DNA of 32,000 bases from Candidatus Saccharimonadota bacterium (GCA_001761425.1 CP012986.1:840001-872000), one strand, 5' to 3'. Positions 3,083 through 29,527 are shown, counted from the stretch's first letter. The notes: a model not told the origin generated them from the sequence alone. Made by a program: numbers and translations.

Positions 3083-3107
3083 TCCCGACTCCAGGATTTG
3101 AACCCGA
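3083..3107 (-). repeat. Partial direct copy of the tRNA-Tyr 3' end (T-arm + acceptor 3' strand + A73)
   Basis: The minus strand reads tcgggTTCAAATCCTGGAGTCGGGA. The last 22 nt are identical to positions 52-73 of the tRNA-Tyr at 3160..3233. No matching 5' acceptor strand lies between it and that tRNA. Confidence 0.8.
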
Positions 3108-3159
3108 AGCTCGCGGGACCGGAGCTTCTCACAAGCTTCAAATCCCATATGCGTTGACA

Positions 3160-3233
3160 TCCCGACTCCAGGATTTGAACCTGGGACAATCCGCTCTACA
3201 GGCGGACGCTCTGCCAGCCTGAGCTAAGTCGGG
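3160..3233 (-). tRNA. tRNA-Tyr (anticodon GTA)
   Basis: Hand-folded 74-nt cloverleaf: CCCGACT TA GCTC AGGCTGGCA GAGC G TCCGC CTGTAGA GCGGA TTGTC CCAGG TTCAAAT CCTGG AGTCGGG A. All stems pair by Watson-Crick. The C1-G72 pair is the archaeal/eukaryal Tyr identity pair. No encoded CCA. Confidence 0.9.
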
Positions 3234-3277
3234 TCTGCCGTCTTAGTCTCATTCAAGAACCGCTTTTGGGCTTCGCA

Positions 3278-3292
3278 CTGAGCTAAGTCGGG
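3278..3292 (-). repeat. Partial direct copy of the tRNA-Tyr 5' end (positions 1-15)
   Basis: The minus strand reads CCCGACTTAGCTCAG, 15/15 identical to the start of the tRNA-Tyr. It lies 44 nt upstream of that tRNA. Identity stops exactly after position 15. Confidence 0.8.
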
Positions 3293-14315: not shown

Positions 14316-14483
14316 GAGCTAATTTAGCCTTGGCAGTTCCGAGATTCCTTAGAACTGTGGATATGCAACTGGCAGTTTTTGGAAGCCATGCAGAGCATGG
14401 CTTATGATTATAAAAACACTGAATTCCATTCGAATTCAGTTCGAACCAACTTTCTAAAGAAAATTGGTGACTTTCAGAAGTTT

Positions 14484-14505
14484 TGGCAGGACCCGGATTC
14501 GAAAC
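14484..14505 (-). repeat. Partial direct copy of the tRNA-Pro 3' end (positions about 52-73)
   Basis: The minus strand reads GTTTCGAATCCGGGTCCTGCCA. It is 20/22 identical to positions 52-73 of the tRNA-Pro at 14617..14689 and lies 111 nt downstream of it. No partner 5' acceptor strand lies in between. Confidence 0.75.
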
Positions 14506-14616
14506 TCGATAGAGTTTCTGCATCCCCAGAAAATCCTTCGGATTTTCGATGGATTTGAACTTGAAAACAAGTTTTCTGCTGCTTCAAATCACGGGTTGAA
14601 GCAGCGCTGAAAGCGA

Positions 14617-14689
14617 TGGCAGGACCCGGATTTGAACCGGGGTCTGGCCGTCCCAAACGGCCAATGATAGTCCACTACACCATCCCGCC
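14617..14689 (-). tRNA. tRNA-Pro (anticodon TGG)
   Basis: Hand-folded 73-nt cloverleaf: GGCGGGA TG GTGT AGTGGACTA TCAT T GGCCG TTTGGGA CGGCC AGAC CCCGG TTCAAAT CCGGG TCCTGCC A. It has one G4-U69 wobble and a weak D-stem. Confidence 0.85.
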
Positions 14690-14764
14690 GTTACACTTTA
14701 ATCTGGTTCGAAAACCTTTAATCAGGTTTTCTACGATGATCGAACTCTCACGAGTTCGGTTCAT

Positions 14765-14779
14765 CTACACCATCCCGCC
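14765..14779 (-). repeat. Partial direct copy of the tRNA-Pro 5' end (positions 1-15)
   Basis: The minus strand reads GGCGGGATGGTGTAG, 15/15 identical to the start of the tRNA-Pro. It lies 75 nt upstream of it. Identity again stops after position 15. Confidence 0.8.
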
Positions 14780-14807: not shown

Positions 14808-14817
14808 CTTTTAAACC
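14808..14817 (-). promoter_or_regulatory. TATA box upstream of the outer tRNA-Pro 5' copy
   Basis: The minus strand reads GGTTTAAAAG. The TTTAAAA element ends about 30 nt upstream of position 14779, which is the normal spacing for an archaeal tRNA promoter. Confidence 0.4.
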
Positions 14818-16200: not shown

Positions 16201-17351
16201 AGTTTAGTCCTCAGGACTGTGTCAGCTGCTTCCCTGACTTTTTCCACGTGTTTTTCAGGACTGTAGACTGCCATATTTACCAGCCTCCACTCCGCTTCTG
16301 TCAAGGCCTCTGGTATCGGCGAGTAATGTTTCATGTTCCGGACTCTGCCATCTTTCTTAACCTTGATATCCAGATGCTGGATCTCCGGCGTCCTGGGCCT
16401 GTCTGTGATAACTTTTTCTTCTCTGAGGCCTGCTTCTTTTGCTATCTCTTTTTCCAGTGTTTTTTCATCGATCTTTTGCTCCAGTTTTTCAAGCTGTTCC
16501 TGTGCCAGGTCGTCTATATCCCAGATAAGTGCTCTCTTGTACAGTTTCCTGTCTTTTATACGGGAGTAAATGTTTTTCGCTCTTCTTTTAGACTCCATCA
16601 GTTCGTTGTGGGCCTCATAGTCATCTAGCTTCATCATTTTTTCCACGTTATTACCTTGTTCTATGTAGCTTTCAATGCTTCTCTGAAGCATTTTTTCCGC
16701 GACCTTTGAGGCGTGATGAGTATAGACTGACTTCATCATGTGGAAGCGTGCGGTGAGAAGGCCTTCCAGGGCCTGAACTGCTTTATGGTTAAAGACAAGT
16801 CTACGTGAGTCGATCTCTGCGACCCTTATGATTGTTTCTGCGTCTATCGTTCCGTGTTCGACTCCTGTAAAGTATGCGTCTCTCTGGAGGTAATCCATAC
16901 GGTCTGCGTCAATCTCTCCTGCTACAGCCTGTCCTATCTCCAGTTCTCCGTGAATAATTTTTTCTACCCTGTCTGTATCGACAGGTATTCTGTCCTCAAG
17001 TTTCCTGACTTTTCTGCAGGAAAGTTCTTCGTGGGAAAGGCCTTTCTGCTCCGCTACTACCTCTGATGCATGGCTGAAAGGTCCGTGTCCGGAATCGTGG
17101 AGAAGGCCTGCGATCCTGAGTTCCTGTCTTCTCTCATCGTTGAGGTTAAGGCTTTCTGAAAATTTTCCTGCAAGGTACATGACGCCAAGCGAGTGCTGGA
17201 ACCTGGTGTGTGTTCCGCTGGGATATACCATGTTTGAGAGGCCTAACTGCTGGATTCTTCTGAGCCTCTGCATTTCCGGTGAGTCTACTATGCTTTGTTC
17301 TGCGTCGTTAAGATCTATGTATCCGTACAGCGGGTCTCTTACGTGTTTCAT
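16197..17351 (-). CDS. HD-domain phosphohydrolase (COG1078, SAMHD1/dGTPase-like)
   Basis: RFQHSLGV...GLLHDSGHGPFSH...DADRMDYLQRD are the canonical HD-superfamily dNTP triphosphohydrolase-like motifs. Confidence 0.85.
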   Translation of the reverse strand: MKHVRDPLYGYIDLNDAEQSIVDSPEMQRLRRIQQLGLSNMVYPSGTHTRFQHSLGVMYLAGKFSESLNLNDERRQELRIAGLLHDSGHGPFSHASEVVAEQKGLSHEELSCRKVRKLEDRIPVDTDRVEKIIHGELEIGQAVAGEIDADRMDYLQRDAYFTGVEHGTIDAETIIRVAEIDSRRLVFNHKAVQALEGLLTARFHMMKSVYTHHASKVAEKMLQRSIESYIEQGNNVEKMMKLDDYEAHNELMESKRRAKNIYSRIKDRKLYKRALIWDIDDLAQEQLEKLEQKIDEKTLEKEIAKEAGLREEKVITDRPRTPEIQHLDIKVKKDGRVRNMKHYSPIPEALTEAEWRLVNMAVYSPEKHVEKVREAADTVLRTKL

Positions 17352-18989: not shown

Positions 18990-19511
18990 ATGGAAAAGGA
19001 TAAACTTCTGAAGGCCTTGAGCGTTCTTGTTATAGGCCTTGCTGCGGGTTTTTTACTGAATTTTTCCCAGTCCGGTACTGTGGAAGATGGTACTGACTGG
19101 AGGAATGAGACTCTTCAGGATGTGAGTACGGGAGAAAAGTTCACTGTTTCAGGCCTTGAGAAGCCTGTTCTGGTGGAGACTTTTGCGGTCTGGTGTCCGA
19201 CCTGTACCCGTCAGCAGGAGGAGATCAAAAAGCTTCACGAGAAGGAAGGTATCAGCTCTGTCTCTCTGGACGTGGATCCGAATGAGGAGGCCTCAAAGGT
19301 TCAGAACCATGTTCAGAAGAATAATTTCACGTGGCGGTATTCTATAGCTTCTTCAGGCCTTACAAGGAAACTTGTACAGCAGTACGGTTCTTCCATGGCT
19401 AATCCTCCTTCCACTCCTGTCGTATTGGTCTGTGAAAACGGCTCGAGAAAGCTTTCCGACGGCGTTAAAACTGCTGAAAAACTGGAGCAGGAGGTAGAGA
19501 AAGGCTGTTAG
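18990..19511 (+). CDS. Membrane-anchored TlpA/ResA-like thiol-disulfide oxidoreductase
   Basis: N-terminal TM anchor (LLKALSVLVIGLAAGFLLNF) followed by a thioredoxin fold with FAVWCPTCTRQ. Confidence 0.8.
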   Translation: MEKDKLLKALSVLVIGLAAGFLLNFSQSGTVEDGTDWRNETLQDVSTGEKFTVSGLEKPVLVETFAVWCPTCTRQQEEIKKLHEKEGISSVSLDVDPNEEASKVQNHVQKNNFTWRYSIASSGLTRKLVQQYGSSMANPPSTPVVLVCENGSRKLSDGVKTAEKLEQEVEKGC

Positions 19512-19512
19512 C

Positions 19513-20184
19513 ATGATCTCGGATTTTTTAAGTTCATTCCTTCTAGGCCTTGCGACCCCTCTCACCGCAGCATGTGTGTTACCGCTTTACCCGGGCTTCA
19601 TCTCGTACCTGACAAAGCAGTTAGACGGCTCGGAATCAAGAAAAACCTACGTATTTTTCGGAGGCCTGACCACGGCAGGAGTGATCAGTTTTATGCTCGT
19701 CCTGGGCCTCGTATTCACGACCTTGATACAGGCCTCGCTGACAGCAGTAACCCAGGTAGTATCGCCGATCGCGTTTGCAGTTCTAGGCCTTCTGAGCCTT
19801 CCGATGATCGCGGGAAAAAGCTTTGACAGCTTTCTACCTTCTCTGGATGCTCCAGGATTTGAAAACCCTCTGAAAAACGCTTTTGGTTTCGGTTTTTTCT
19901 TCGGAGCGATAGTGCTGCCCTGTAATCCGGGCTACATAGCTGTCTTCCTGGCAAGAGCGACATTGTTCAGTTCGCCGATCTCAGGCCTTCTGAACTTCCT
20001 TCTTTTCGGAGTAGGTATCGGATCTCCTCTGCTCGCGTTCTCACTGATCTCTTCCAGAAAAAGCAGTGAAGTGACAGGAATCCTGAAAAAGCACGAGAAA
20101 AGGATCAACCAGGCCTCAGGCCTTTTCATGCTGTCGATAAGTCTTTATTACCTTTTCTTTGTTTTCAACCTGTTTTCTCTCTAG
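19513..20184 (+). CDS. ccdA: CcdA/DsbD-family transmembrane thiol-disulfide electron transporter
   Basis: 223 aa with about 6 TM segments. It has the two conserved Cys-Pro motifs of CcdA: ACVLPLYPGF and LPCNPGY. Confidence 0.85.
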   Translation: MISDFLSSFLLGLATPLTAACVLPLYPGFISYLTKQLDGSESRKTYVFFGGLTTAGVISFMLVLGLVFTTLIQASLTAVTQVVSPIAFAVLGLLSLPMIAGKSFDSFLPSLDAPGFENPLKNAFGFGFFFGAIVLPCNPGYIAVFLARATLFSSPISGLLNFLLFGVGIGSPLLAFSLISSRKSSEVTGILKKHEKRINQASGLFMLSISLYYLFFVFNLFSL

Positions 20185-20185
20185 T

Positions 20186-20842
20186 TTATTTCCAGACACG
20201 CTCGATGTATCCGGTTCTCCCGCTTCCACGTTTGTAGGCCCTGTACTGGTAAGTATTTTTCACTGAGTAGTTTTGTTGGGAGTCCTTCGCCCTGTAAAAG
20301 TCTGTGAAGTTTTTTACTTCGGTGACTATTTCTTCGTCGAATTTTCCGCTGTTGCTGAGGTTCTCCTTTGACTGTTTCGCCAGTCTGTACTGTCTTTCAT
20401 CGTGTGCGTAGATAGCTGTAGTGTACTGGAAGCCCCTGTCCGCGAACTGGCCTCCAGGATCCGTGGGATCGATGCTACGCCAGTAGATATCAAGTAACTC
20501 TCTGTAATCGATCAGGCTGGGGTAGTACTCGACCATAACCGCTTCCCTGTGTTCTGTTTCACCGGAGGCTACAAGCCTGTACTCCGCTGTAGAGGCCTTA
20601 CCATCGGTGAAACCGCTTACTGCTGATTCGATACCTTTTTCACCCTGGTAGACTTCCTCTATACACCAGAAACAACCTCCTGCGAACGTTGCTTTTTCCG
20701 GGGTCCTGTTCTCGACCTGTGAGCGCCATTCCTGGCTAGAACCGTTTTTATCCCCGTTTATGAACTCGGAGGCCTCCGGGGCGATAAAACCTGCGGTGAC
20801 GCCTACTAGCAGTATGAGTAGAAGAGATCTGTTGAACTCCAT
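20186..20842 (-). CDS. msrA: Peptide-methionine (S)-S-oxide reductase MsrA with N-terminal signal anchor
   Basis: GGCFWCIEEVY catalytic motif. It is preceded by a hydrophobic N-terminus (LLLILLVGVTAGFIA), which suggests an extracytoplasmic location. Confidence 0.9.
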   Translation of the reverse strand: MEFNRSLLLILLVGVTAGFIAPEASEFINGDKNGSSQEWRSQVENRTPEKATFAGGCFWCIEEVYQGEKGIESAVSGFTDGKASTAEYRLVASGETEHREAVMVEYYPSLIDYRELLDIYWRSIDPTDPGGQFADRGFQYTTAIYAHDERQYRLAKQSKENLSNSGKFDEEIVTEVKNFTDFYRAKDSQQNYSVKNTYQYRAYKRGSGRTGYIERVWK

Positions 20843-20916
20843 TTTACAGAGTTAATTTCTCACGGCATGGATTTTAAGGTGATGCTTACGGAAAAGTTAG
20901 CCGGATCTTCAGGAGC

Positions 20917-21462
20917 CTAGAGGAATCTTGGGACCTTCCTCCAGTATTCTCTGTACTCATCACCGTATTCCTGGTCCAGCCATAGCTCCTCCGAAAAAAC
21001 CATCATTATCAGCCAGAGGCCTGTGATAGAAGAAACCAGAACCGGTCGAAGGCTTCTGAGAAGTGCTACGATGCCTAAAAGTGTTATCAGGTTGCCTAGT
21101 ACCTGTGGGTTTCTGCTGTACTGGTAGAGGCCTTCATCCACGAAACTTTTGTCGAGGCCTGATGTCTGTTTGAGGCTTAGCTGTTTGATTGCCTTCAAAG
21201 TAACTAATATGCCTCCGATGATGGCTGTAATAGATATGACGGAGTTTATTGTTATTGAGAAGTTTTGAAGGCCTTTGACTGTCATGTAGGTCAGCGATAT
21301 CATGTTTGCTGTGGATAGTATCCAGTAAGTTATCCGTTTCCTGTTATTTTTTCCTGGAGGCCAGAACCTGAACTTTCTGCTGTAAACAGTTGCTGTCATC
21401 AGGCCCAGTAATAATGTTGAGCTGGTGAGGCCTGTATAAAATATGATCTGGTTTATTTCCAC
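20917..21462 (-). CDS. Membrane methyltransferase-like protein (ICMT/PEMT family)
   Basis: 181 aa and polytopic. GLYQYSRNPQVLGNL matches the G-x-Y-x-x-x-R-[HN]-P motif of isoprenylcysteine carboxyl / phospholipid methyltransferase-type proteins. GTG start. Confidence 0.65.
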   Translation of the reverse strand: MEINQIIFYTGLTSSTLLLGLMTATVYSRKFRFWPPGKNNRKRITYWILSTANMISLTYMTVKGLQNFSITINSVISITAIIGGILVTLKAIKQLSLKQTSGLDKSFVDEGLYQYSRNPQVLGNLITLLGIVALLRSLRPVLVSSITGLWLIMMVFSEELWLDQEYGDEYREYWRKVPRFL

Positions 21463-21518
21463 GTAAACATTTAGCTGTAGGGGATTTTATTTGTGGGAGG
21501 CCTTTTCTGCGAGTCTAG

Positions 21519-22157
21519 TTATGAACCGGTGTTGTTGAATAGACCGGTGTATTCTCCGTATCCCTGTTCCTCCAGCTTGTCAGCAGGTATGAACTCGAGT
21601 GCTGCACTGTTGAGGCAGTATCTGAGGCCTGTGGGCGTGTTTGGGTTTTCGAAGATGTGTCCCAGGTGGCTGTCTGCGTGTTTGCTTCTGACCTCTACTC
21701 TGTCTCCTACAGGCCCTGGATCTTTTTTCTCCACAACGTTTGAAGGTTCGAGCGGTCTGTAGAAGCTTGGCCATCCTGTCCCTGACTTGAATTTGGTCCT
21801 GCTGGAGAAAAGCGGTTCCCCGCTCACCACATCTACGTAGATGCCGGGTCTGTAGTTGTCGTAGAGTTCGTTTACGAACGGTTTTTCCGTACCCAGTTGC
21901 TGTGTCACGTAGTACTCTGTCTCTGAGAGATTTTCTATCTCTTCCTGGTAGCTTTCCTGTATCCATCTTTCATCACTCGGAGGATCTGAACTGAACCTCT
22001 CCTCCTGTACATTCAAGTCCTGAGTCCCTGTCATCCAGGCCAGACCGCTCGTAATATATCCTGAGAAAAACAGGCCTAGAAGGAGAAATGCAAGGCCTCC
22101 AAGCAAAAATCTGTTTCTCCTTTTCTTATCCATCTTGCTCACCTTCGAACTTTTCAA
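21519..22157 (-). CDS. msrB: Peptide-methionine (R)-S-oxide reductase MsrB with N-terminal membrane anchor
   Basis: GTGWPSFYRP, HLGHIF and RYCLNSAAL motifs. A KKRRNRF + TM helix at the N-terminus follows the positive-inside rule, placing the catalytic domain outside. It lacks the Zn-binding CxxC pairs. Confidence 0.9.
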   Translation of the reverse strand: MKSSKVSKMDKKRRNRFLLGGLAFLLLGLFFSGYITSGLAWMTGTQDLNVQEERFSSDPPSDERWIQESYQEEIENLSETEYYVTQQLGTEKPFVNELYDNYRPGIYVDVVSGEPLFSSRTKFKSGTGWPSFYRPLEPSNVVEKKDPGPVGDRVEVRSKHADSHLGHIFENPNTPTGLRYCLNSAALEFIPADKLEEQGYGEYTGLFNNTGS

Positions 22158-29014: not shown

Positions 29015-29527
29015 ATGACGGAGGAAGTTGTGCTGGGCGGAGGCTGCTTCTGGTGTACGGAGGCCTCTTTCAAAGAGGTCTCGGGAGTGCTGGAAGTTAC
29101 TTCAGGGTATGCCGGAGGACACGCAGAGAACCCGAGTTACAGGGAGGTATGTTCCGGTGACACAGGACATGCCGAAGTAGTAAGGATAGAGTACAGAGAG
29201 GAAAAAGTTTCTCTTGAAAAATTACTGGAACTTTTCTTCAGGATACACGACCCGACGACAGAAGATCGACAAGGCCCTGATGTGGGGAACCAGTACCGCT
29301 CGATAATCCTTTATCAGAATGAGGAGCAGAGGGAAAAAGTTGAGGCCTTCATCGAGGAGAAAGAAGACGAGTACGAAGATGAGATCGTGACTGAGGTCAA
29401 GAGTCTTGATAATTTTTACAGAGCTGAAGAGAGGCATCAGGATTACTTTGAGAAGAATCCTGAGAACGCTTACTGTACGATGCATGCAGAGCCGAAGGTG
29501 GAGAAGGCCCGTGAGATGAACTTGTAG
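29015..29527 (+). CDS. msrA: Peptide-methionine (S)-S-oxide reductase MsrA (cytoplasmic form)
   Basis: GGGCFWCTEASF lies at the extreme N-terminus with no signal or anchor. 170 aa. Confidence 0.9.
   Translation: MTEEVVLGGGCFWCTEASFKEVSGVLEVTSGYAGGHAENPSYREVCSGDTGHAEVVRIEYREEKVSLEKLLELFFRIHDPTTEDRQGPDVGNQYRSIILYQNEEQREKVEAFIEEKEDEYEDEIVTEVKSLDNFYRAEERHQDYFEKNPENAYCTMHAEPKVEKAREMNL

Follow-up and report, generated by a model that had tools for sequence, protein, structure and literature searches.

Introduction

Elements that integrate at tRNA genes leave partial copies of the gene at their borders: Haloquadratum prophages are accompanied by partial tRNA repeats of 22 and 43 bp (PMC3119063), and an element with an SNJ2-type integrase has a core of 14 bp (PMC5861418). 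In such attachment site (att) duplications, a direct repeat flanks the insert, the gene is regenerated and its original end is displaced (PMC5861418, PMC3119063). Here, we analyze a tRNA-Pro(UGG) gene on the minus strand of a 32,000 nt stretch of DNA (GCA_001761425.1, CP012986.1:840001-872000, listed as Candidatus Saccharimonadota bacterium; hereafter the window), in which the complete tRNA is enclosed by separate partial copies of its own 5′ and 3′ ends. The locus resembles an att duplication in this layout, and also in that relatives have empty sites (loci L333 and L335 without the 5′ insert, L334 without the 3′ insert) and that most repeats end at the tRNA boundary. In contrast to att elements, the modules described here measure only 44–111 nt, contain neither genes nor an integrase, carry an antisense copy of the tRNA end together with hairpins, occur also at the 5′ end, and sometimes form tandem arrays.

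In integron attC cassettes and in the attP site of phage CTXphi, which integrates at dif, an imperfect inverted repeat adopts a hairpin fold and in this way imitates the duplex form of the target. Integration leaves one target copy, then the element, the inverted arm and a loop, and finally a second target copy; arrays of short units, the order of which can differ, form by a fixed site. The antisense arm of the modules analyzed here can likewise fold with the outer copy, but the target is the D-/T-loop region of a tRNA, the units are without an open reading frame (ORF), and the hosts are archaea. Structures of the type duplication, inverted triplication, duplication, which arise by template switching in human genomic disorders, also contain three copies with the middle one inverted. 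However, those structures comprise kilobases and the copies here about 20 nt; moreover, conserved non-local hairpin motifs stand at the junctions here, and the limits coincide with the tRNA ends.

SMR-A of Haloquadratum is about 110 bp long, non-coding and rich in inverted repeats, and inserts into hairpin palindromes, its mobilization being unknown (PMC3119063). The modules resemble it in size and in a preference for hairpin targets, but SMR-A is high-copy and conserved in sequence, causes no target duplication and targets IS605/PATE palindromes. Disrupted archaeal tRNAs include non-canonical introns, split and permuted tRNAs, and the fragment model for a Caldiarchaeum tRNA-Thr (PMC3293823, PMC3218864, PMC4090602). 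As in our locus, tRNA fragments lie by a tRNA gene and the D- or T-arm is disrupted, and mobile-element insertion has been proposed as a source of the introns; unlike those cases, however, the tRNA studied here is contiguous, has no bulge-helix-bulge motif and needs no splicing. No description of such modules was found in the searchable literature, the coverage of which is incomplete, and their novelty is provisional. We present evidence that the layout very probably arose at the DNA level, by insertion with duplication of the tRNA end.

Results

A tRNA-Pro gene nested between copies of its own ends

All elements of the nested layout, which had been described in an earlier note on this DNA, were recovered on the minus strand (Table 1). 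A second, independently made assembly from Logan (L002) confirms the 3′ part: it agrees with the window at every one of 3,952 nt, a stretch that includes part of the inner tRNA-Pro as well as the 3′ spacer and the outer 3′ copy. For an exact 15-mer repeated within 300 nt, the chance expectation is about 3e-7. The inner tRNA-Pro(UGG) is the functional working gene. Concerning its detection, an Rfam search of the whole window at the gathering threshold listed only tRNA-Tyr, but a search of the 551 nt Pro region scored tRNA-Pro well above the gathering score of 29 bits (Table 1); the miss in the whole-window search appears to be an effect of the speed filter. The window carries a TFIIB gene and is thus archaeal; the closest homologs of this gene are found in Candidatus Nanohalobium and other Nanohaloarchaeota.

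Filled and empty sites in relatives

Using the neighboring DUF5995 protein as an anchor, the Pro locus was recovered in three relatives, namely L333 (82% protein identity), L334 (77%) and L335 (76%). In L333 and L335, the promoter block ggagattggTTTAAAAgacttaactaag is followed about 30 nt further on directly by an uninterrupted tRNA-Pro, without any 5′ insert. The same block precedes an outer copy in L334, GGCGGGATAGTGTAGTGGA (positions 1–19, 18/19 identical), after which come a 68 nt insert homologous to the 75 nt spacer of the window (55/75 identical) and an intact tRNA; a 3′ module is absent. Over the aligned parts the tRNA-Pro is identical in all three relatives (aligned over its full length in L334, over about 60 nt in L333 and over about 27 nt in L335), and the alignment sets the window and L334 apart by a cleanly bounded insertion of about 90 nt.

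Based on this alignment, we conclude that the tRNA-Pro gene originally started at what is now the displaced outer 5′ copy, since the tRNA itself begins there in the empty sites of L333 and L335. The nested layout is consequently derived, the 5′ and 3′ modules are separate events, and the modules would be dispensable to the organism. The earlier observation that the TTTAAAA box is correctly spaced for the outer 5′ copy holds as well, this copy having been the real start of the gene. By analogy with the 5′ side and with a tRNA-Tyr locus of another relative (L328, see below), the outer 3′ copy is probably the displaced original 3′ end. In topology, the Pro inserts correspond to a Campbell-type (att-like) insertion, and the filled and empty sites among relatives speak for the earlier proposal of a site-specific rearrangement or insertion mechanism acting at the D-loop and T-stem.

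It had also been claimed that the Pro and Tyr loci share their breakpoints exactly. The breakpoints are indeed the same at both loci of the window, but "exactly shared" is too strong a wording, as the limits vary in relatives. The 5′ copy covers positions 1–15 or, in L334, 1–19; the 3′ copy starts at about position 49–53 or, in L330, at about 58–60, and in L328 it runs 18 nt past position 73. The duplications are 15 and 19 nt long at the 5′ end, and those at the 3′ end range from about 16–17 to 40 nt. A break after G15 and a restart at G52 are therefore the usual case but no fixed rule.

Anatomy of the inserts

All inserts are 44–111 nt long and non-coding, and combine small hairpins with a segment antisense to the adjacent tRNA end. 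On the 3′ side the order is tRNA, linker, antisense T-loop/T-stem, one or more hairpins and sense copy. The 5′ side is the mirror image, with sense copy, hairpin, antisense of about positions 4–13, linker and tRNA, and is clearest at the Tyr loci. The four hairpins listed in the earlier note are all present in the tRNA-Pro spacers, and the outer 3′ copy of tRNA-Pro pairs with the antisense arm in the predicted fold. Self-inverted 6-mers cover 0.70 of the Pro 3′ spacer compared with 0.20 in shuffled sequences, and short tRNA-derived segments are enriched in it (0.41 versus 0.12). One of its hairpins, CGAAAATCC-GAA-GGATTTTCT, is common to the tRNA-Tyr 3′ insert of L328.

The Pro 5′ insert contains AGAAAAC followed by an A/T-rich loop, 26–35 nt upstream of the inner tRNA, and the second TATA-like element noted earlier is found there; L334 has ATATCATAAGG at the corresponding place. 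Judged by its sequence and position, this box may be a replacement B recognition element (BRE)/TATA box for the inner tRNA-Pro. The first hairpin of the L334 insert differs from that of the window by a compensatory change from C–G to T–A. The second hairpin type, according to a regular-expression search, is also a generic A-run/T-run hairpin, e.g., in L066 (Methanobacterium sp. UBA8), where five or more small hairpins, GAAAAATC-nnn-GATTTTTC, are arrayed between genes at positions 16560–16730 and both strands show A-runs and T-runs. These look like a generic bidirectional terminator type and resemble the GAAAAYC...GRTTTTC hairpins of the nanohaloarchaeal inserts.

Two further observations concern these hairpins. 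A distant relative, the nanohaloarchaeal metagenome-assembled genome JBDGSN010000016.1 (L003), carries both Pro 5′-insert hairpins in the same order at positions 1–85 of a contig end (GAACTCggtaGAGTTC, 9 nt, GAAAACCcgtGGTTTTCGAACCAGA), with a T-loop-like GGTTCAAAAC before them and no tRNA-Pro after them, where the contig stops. The palindrome ACTTCTGAAAGT, located shortly after the outer 3′ copy of the window (14466–14477), is also the core of the 5′-insert hairpin CGAACTTCTGAAAGTTCG of L334 (about 1480–1491).

The tRNA-Tyr locus and its relatives

A tRNA-Tyr(GUA) gene of the window has the same nested layout (Table 1). Among its relatives, L083, L084 and L328 possess a 5′ module, and L328 a 3′ module as well. 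In L084 (TFIIB 96% identical), the outer 5′ copy matches at 14/15 positions and the spacer cannot be aligned to that of the window. The copy of L083 (TFIIB 90%) matches at 15/15 positions and carries the A5G change of the inner tRNA; a second, more degenerate unit lies further upstream. L328 (TFIIB 62%) displays the full nested layout, and its 3′ duplication comprises positions 52–73 and continues for 18 nt into the downstream flank, so that what is repeated is genomic DNA and not a piece bounded by the tRNA.

A 48 nt Tyr 5′ insert is identical at 47/48 positions between L083 (7124–7171) and L328 (6763–6810), the TFIIB proteins of which are 66% identical. The window and L083 share 90% TFIIB identity, and their Tyr inserts are largely different. 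Comparing these inserts at the sequence level suggests lateral exchange or replacement of a unit made up of tRNA and insert. At a tRNA-Ala gene (L330), two downstream copies start inside the T-loop, at about position 58–60. A TFIIB-anchored synteny scan of GTDB genomes returned at least four nanohaloarchaeal loci; in the four among the matches listed, there was no tRNA at the locus.

Modules in other halophilic archaea

A first search pattern (antisense T-loop plus T-loop) mostly matched tRNA-Ser genes and was replaced by a three-part pattern, in which two T-loops had to enclose an antisense T-loop at prescribed distances. In the window, only the Pro and Tyr loci match it, with 0 expected; elsewhere, one viral contig and at least 120 metagenome stretches did so. 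The earlier note had counted a lack of further examples genome-wide against its reading; in fact, at least 67 non-redundant tRNAs of at least 26 isoacceptor types were found to have a copy of their own 3′ end 40–190 nt downstream. Among the matches listed, the copy is 21–29 nt long in 96% of cases (median 23 nt), where the spacing and the lower bound of copy length are partly set by ascertainment through the pattern, but the upper bound is not.

Most of the matches listed are GC-rich contigs whose tRNA-Leu matches Halobacteria replicons, and roughly one in two bystander tRNAs on these contigs has a module as well. A convincing 5′ copy was present in 0 of 132 tRNAs in these metagenome loci, among the matches listed; the only 5′ modules of this sample belong to the Nanohalobium-like lineage. 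In the 71 modules listed, with the window's Pro and Tyr modules included, the linker has a median of 22 nt and the antisense arm of 20 nt, and the arm pairs over at least 10 bp with the 3′ piece of the inner tRNA in 66 and with the outer copy likewise in 66. The duplication reaches at least 6 nt into the flank in 8/71, and the sense and antisense copies thus usually end at position 73. Tandem units were seen in L300 and L318, and the order of units is unlike between L276 and L318.

The haloarchaeal hairpins have an 11 nt tip in common, GARCGNAGYGA, a mini-hairpin of the GCGAAGC type. The tip is built of tandem G·A pairs, an R–Y pair, a C–G pair and a GNA triloop (L206–L325), and stands directly 3′ of the tRNA in L219, L235 and L321 and in a second hairpin in L229 and L272. 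The stem of the first hairpin in haloarchaeal tRNA 3′ flanks often opens with a T-run right after position 73. A longer hairpin core, GTCGCGCRCAGCGARGCGAGCACGTC, is common to some haloarchaeal modules on different tRNAs. This core recurs on a plasmid of Haloarcula halophila, in a 66 nt insert that interrupts the T-arm of a tRNA-Cys; no intact inner 3′ end exists there, and this tRNA-Cys is the only case that looks truly interrupted. The plasmid locus (L326; NZ_CP119561.1, 238656–241714) contains at positions 1–2500 an array of 17 tRNA genes detected by ARAGORN, beside a TROVE (Ro60-like) gene. Further interrupted tRNAs lie in the gaps of the array, including the tRNA-Cys(GCA) at about 1432–1569 and another with a long insert in the anticodon loop.

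Some pattern matches look bacterial, such as L239 with an encoded CCA end and L241 with an 84 nt class II tRNA-Tyr, and in others the tRNA 3′ end is repeated together with the spacer in perfect tandem (the group comprises L239, L241/L320, L236/L247, L274, L292 and L279). They may represent related arrangements outside halophilic archaea or a different phenomenon.

Tests for a role at the RNA level

In the 551 nt Pro region, Rfam at E ≤ 1 found only the inner tRNA. A scan for bulge-helix-bulge motifs (helix, 3 nt bulge, 4 bp helix, 3 nt bulge, helix) yielded scattered matches only, with weak 3 bp helices, and none at the outer 15/16, inner 15/16, inner 51/52 or outer 51/52 junctions. A C/D box or K-turn guide RNA was rejected because no pair of C (RUGAUGA) and D (CUGA) boxes is properly arranged around the antisense arms upon inspection, and no Rfam match was obtained. 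Likewise, a second cloverleaf or second isoacceptor in the spacers was detected neither by eye nor by ARAGORN or Rfam, as the earlier note had reported for a canonical cloverleaf.

In 1,281 antisense:sense pairs among the matches listed, 31 mispairs are G·T and 42 are A·C (p = 0.24). Selection for a helix in the sense-strand RNA should favor G·U; since there is no such excess, the arms look like a DNA-level inverted duplication. Between the outer and the inner copy, the antisense arm has no preference (21 and 16 cases, 34 ties, among the matches listed). At 21 haloarchaeal tRNA-Leu(TAG) loci, the median identity is 0.74 for the linker and 0.79 for the antisense arm, compared with 0.55 and 0.43 for the flanks and 0.35 after shuffling. 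Overall, an RNA-level role of the modules is not supported.

Features of the window

The coordinates are compiled in Table 1. Unrelated to the tRNA loci, the window encodes an oxidative-damage repair cluster at 18990–22157 and 29015–29527, with a redoxin, a DsbD-like membrane protein, two PMSR (MsrA) and a SelR (MsrB).

Table 1. Elements of the tRNA-Pro and tRNA-Tyr loci, with positions counted from the first nucleotide of the window.
Feature	Position	Strand	Remarks
Native TATA box TTTAAAA of the tRNA-Pro gene	14809..14815	-	Ends 29 nt upstream of outer 5′ copy
Pro outer 5′ copy GGCGGGATGGTGTAG	14765..14779	-	tRNA positions 1–15; 15/15 identity, mismatch from position 16
Pro 5′ insert, 75 nt	14690..14764	-	Between outer 5′ copy and inner tRNA
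Hairpin CGAACTC-GTGA-GAGTTCG	14758-14741	-	Pro 5′ insert
Hairpin GAAAACC-loop-GGTTTTC, then GAACC	14731-14705	-	Pro 5′ insert
BRE/TATA-like box TGATTAAAGG	14724-14715	-	A/T-rich loop of second 5′-insert hairpin; −35 to −26 of inner tRNA (+1)
Inner tRNA-Pro(TGG) (UGG)	14617..14689	-	Intact, contiguous, full length; ARAGORN; Rfam tRNA model 52.6 bits
Pro 3′ insert, 111 nt	14506..14616	-	Between inner tRNA and outer 3′ copy
Pro 3′-insert hairpins	14605-14578, 14576-14563, 14547-14529, 14518-14501	-	
Antisense copy of T-loop and T-stem CCCGTGATTTGAA	14595-14583	-	Pro 3′ insert
Third T-loop copy GTTCAAATCC	14560-14551	-	Pro 3′ insert
Pro outer 3′ copy GTTTCGAATCCGGGTCCTGCCA	14484..14505	-	tRNA positions 52–73; 20/22, differences G53T and A57G
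tRNA-Tyr(GUA) locus	3083..3292	-	Same nested layout
Tyr outer 5′ copy	3292-3278	-	15/15
Tyr 5′ insert, 44 nt		-	Between outer 5′ copy and inner tRNA
Inner tRNA-Tyr	3233-3160	-	
Tyr 3′ insert, 55 nt		-	Between inner tRNA and outer 3′ copy; antisense T-loop TGGGATTTGAA
Tyr outer 3′ copy	3104-3083	-	22/22; T6 terminator next

Discussion

Insertion with duplication of the tRNA end

Very probably, an ordinary single tRNA-Pro(UGG) gene was hit by two independent DNA insertions, in its 5′ and in its 3′ part. With every insert came a further copy of the tRNA end, so that the gene was regenerated intact as the inner tRNA, and the original ends were pushed outward, the 5′ end staying by the native promoter and the 3′ end probably by the native terminator. 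The 5′ insert would supply a replacement BRE/TATA-like box for the inner tRNA. The primary transcript probably spans the whole locus, from which RNase P and tRNase Z would free the inner tRNA.

As to the mechanism, the recombination site may be the folded hairpin that the antisense arm forms with the sense copy of the tRNA end. If a site of this kind integrated, as for CTXphi at dif or attC at attI, the order tRNA, linker, antisense, hairpin and sense copy would result, mirrored at the 5′ end, and the same process would act on many tRNA genes of halophilic archaea. Cassette integration would account for arms that end at the tRNA boundary, for inserts that bring promoter- or terminator-like sequence, for arrays and shuffling, and for the conflict between insert and host phylogeny. 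Hints of mobility are the insert hairpins common to different tRNAs and genomes, the haloarchaeal module hairpin core that also interrupts the T-arm of the plasmid tRNA-Cys, and the differing unit order of L276 and L318. While insertion as such is very probable, we regard the mechanism by miniature, protein-less recombination cassettes with a folded-hairpin site as tentative, its chances lying a little under even; the whole statement, with two independent insertions plus this mechanism, is evenly poised.

Several points weigh against this reading. No recombinase was found among the subset of window ORFs scanned against Pfam and NCBIfam, and the integrase-linked partial tRNA-Leu of L327 has no module-like flank. 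Searches for module or insert cores in haloviruses and viral contigs (a phage database and three viral scans) were negative or gave chance matches, and no circular or excised form and no viral or plasmid donor was found. The antisense arms are specific for their tRNA, which local copying explains more easily than a mobile unit would, except if each cassette lineage keeps to a single tRNA. Part of the regular spacing and copy length stems from the search pattern, as stated above. Orthology between the flanks of the Pro outer 3′ copy and L334 could not be demonstrated, which bears on its reading as the original end, and the conservation of the tRNA-Leu linker and antisense arm could reflect function rather than selfish DNA.

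Alternative explanations

Fold-back template switching after fork stalling at heavily transcribed, hairpin-forming tRNA genes would do without any mobile element: the tRNA end would be copied inverted and then direct, leaving a small structure of duplication, inverted triplication and duplication. The order of sense, antisense and sense copies is the signature of two such switches; further points in favor are the locus specificity of the arms, a neutral mismatch spectrum and the enrichment of short tRNA-derived segments in the Pro 3′ spacer. By inspection, the haloarchaeal palindrome can moreover continue through the flank, and in L330 hairpins are nested in the loops of other hairpins. However, local sequence tiles only 12–41% of each spacer, and hairpin cores that are not local recur at different tRNAs and in different genomes. 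The copies mostly end sharply at +1 and position 73, which random switching would not produce, and the insert phylogeny conflicts with that of host genes. All in all, we consider template switching rather unlikely.

Alternatively, the modules might be functional RNA, with leader and trailer hairpins taking part in pre-tRNA folding, processing, termination or regulation; for instance, the antisense arm could sequester the tRNA end, or a hairpin could mimic an acceptor/T minihelix and be cut out by RNase P and tRNase Z. This is improbable, though less so for the conserved haloarchaeal modules, given that the modules are absent from close relatives (L333 and L335), that 5′ and 3′ modules are found apart (L334), that spacers turn over fast between near relatives, and that the stem pairs show no G·U excess and belong to no Rfam family. 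On the other hand, the locus is probably a single transcript, with the native promoter before the outer 5′ copy and, at the Tyr locus, a T6 run after the outer 3′ copy. Also pointing toward function are a compensatory change seen in the Pro 5′ hairpin, the tRNA-Leu linker and antisense arm conserved above flank level, and the outer copy that follows the A5G change of the inner tRNA-Tyr in L083. Two related candidates of the earlier note, an unusual tRNA precursor architecture and a tRNA-associated small RNA, find no support, in view of relatives that lack modules, the independence of 5′ and 3′ modules, junctions free of bulge-helix-bulge motifs, the Rfam result and stems free of RNA-type wobble bias.

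Even less probable is that the modules descend from conventional large elements, viral or plasmid and equipped with a tyrosine integrase, which had integrated and then lost their interior, so that attL and attR came to lie near each other. Such elements are classically recognized by a partial tRNA copy next to a tRNA gene (PMC3119063, PMC5861418), and the partial tRNA-Leu of L327 adjoins an integrase gene. Yet described att sites show neither the regular architecture nor an antisense arm; the term "inverted repeat" is never used in the main text of the SNJ2 paper (PMC5861418). In addition, the inserts hold no coding remnants, their small size is kept between the window and L334, and random deletion would not yield a uniform 45–110 nt module on at least 26 tRNA types. 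An insertion of a miniature inverted-repeat transposable element or other transposon was rejected as well, as the duplication length is variable and about 200 kb of nanohaloarchaeal DNA contain no dispersed copies.

Finally, a split or multi-intron precursor, in which outer 1–15, inner 16–51 and outer 52–73 would be spliced or the outer pieces would form a second tRNA, is largely refuted: although the outer pieces can form a 7 bp acceptor helix around the locus in the predicted fold, and the hairpin core lies inside the T-arm of the plasmid tRNA-Cys without an intact inner 3′ end, the inner tRNA is contiguous and complete, the gene of relatives is uninterrupted, the junctions have no bulge-helix-bulge motif, no second cloverleaf exists, and G53T breaks the outer Pro T-stem.

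Implications

For annotation, the "tRNA inside a tRNA" becomes readable as history, which guards against annotating the outer pieces as pseudo tRNAs or split ones. In short-read assemblies, contigs end within the repeats (L002, L084, L333 and L335). The recurrence of modules behind at least 26 kinds of tRNA indicates that some specific process, apparently undescribed, repeatedly remodels the ends of tRNA genes in Halobacteria and nanohaloarchaea. If replication errors were responsible, tRNA genes would be hotspots of palindrome formation. If insertion of mobile mini-cassettes is the true cause, they would be a new type of archaeal mobile DNA and a testable source of non-canonical tRNA introns and split tRNAs, whose origin has long been debated. 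Going further, though with still more doubt than we attach to template switching, one could imagine an unrecognized class of miniature, protein-less cassettes that insert in the D-/T-loop region by way of the folded antisense:sense hairpin, an archaeal analog of attC and CTXphi, in which later loss of the regenerated inner end, as for the Haloarcula plasmid tRNA-Cys, would leave an interrupted tRNA and thereby open a route to non-canonical introns and split tRNAs.

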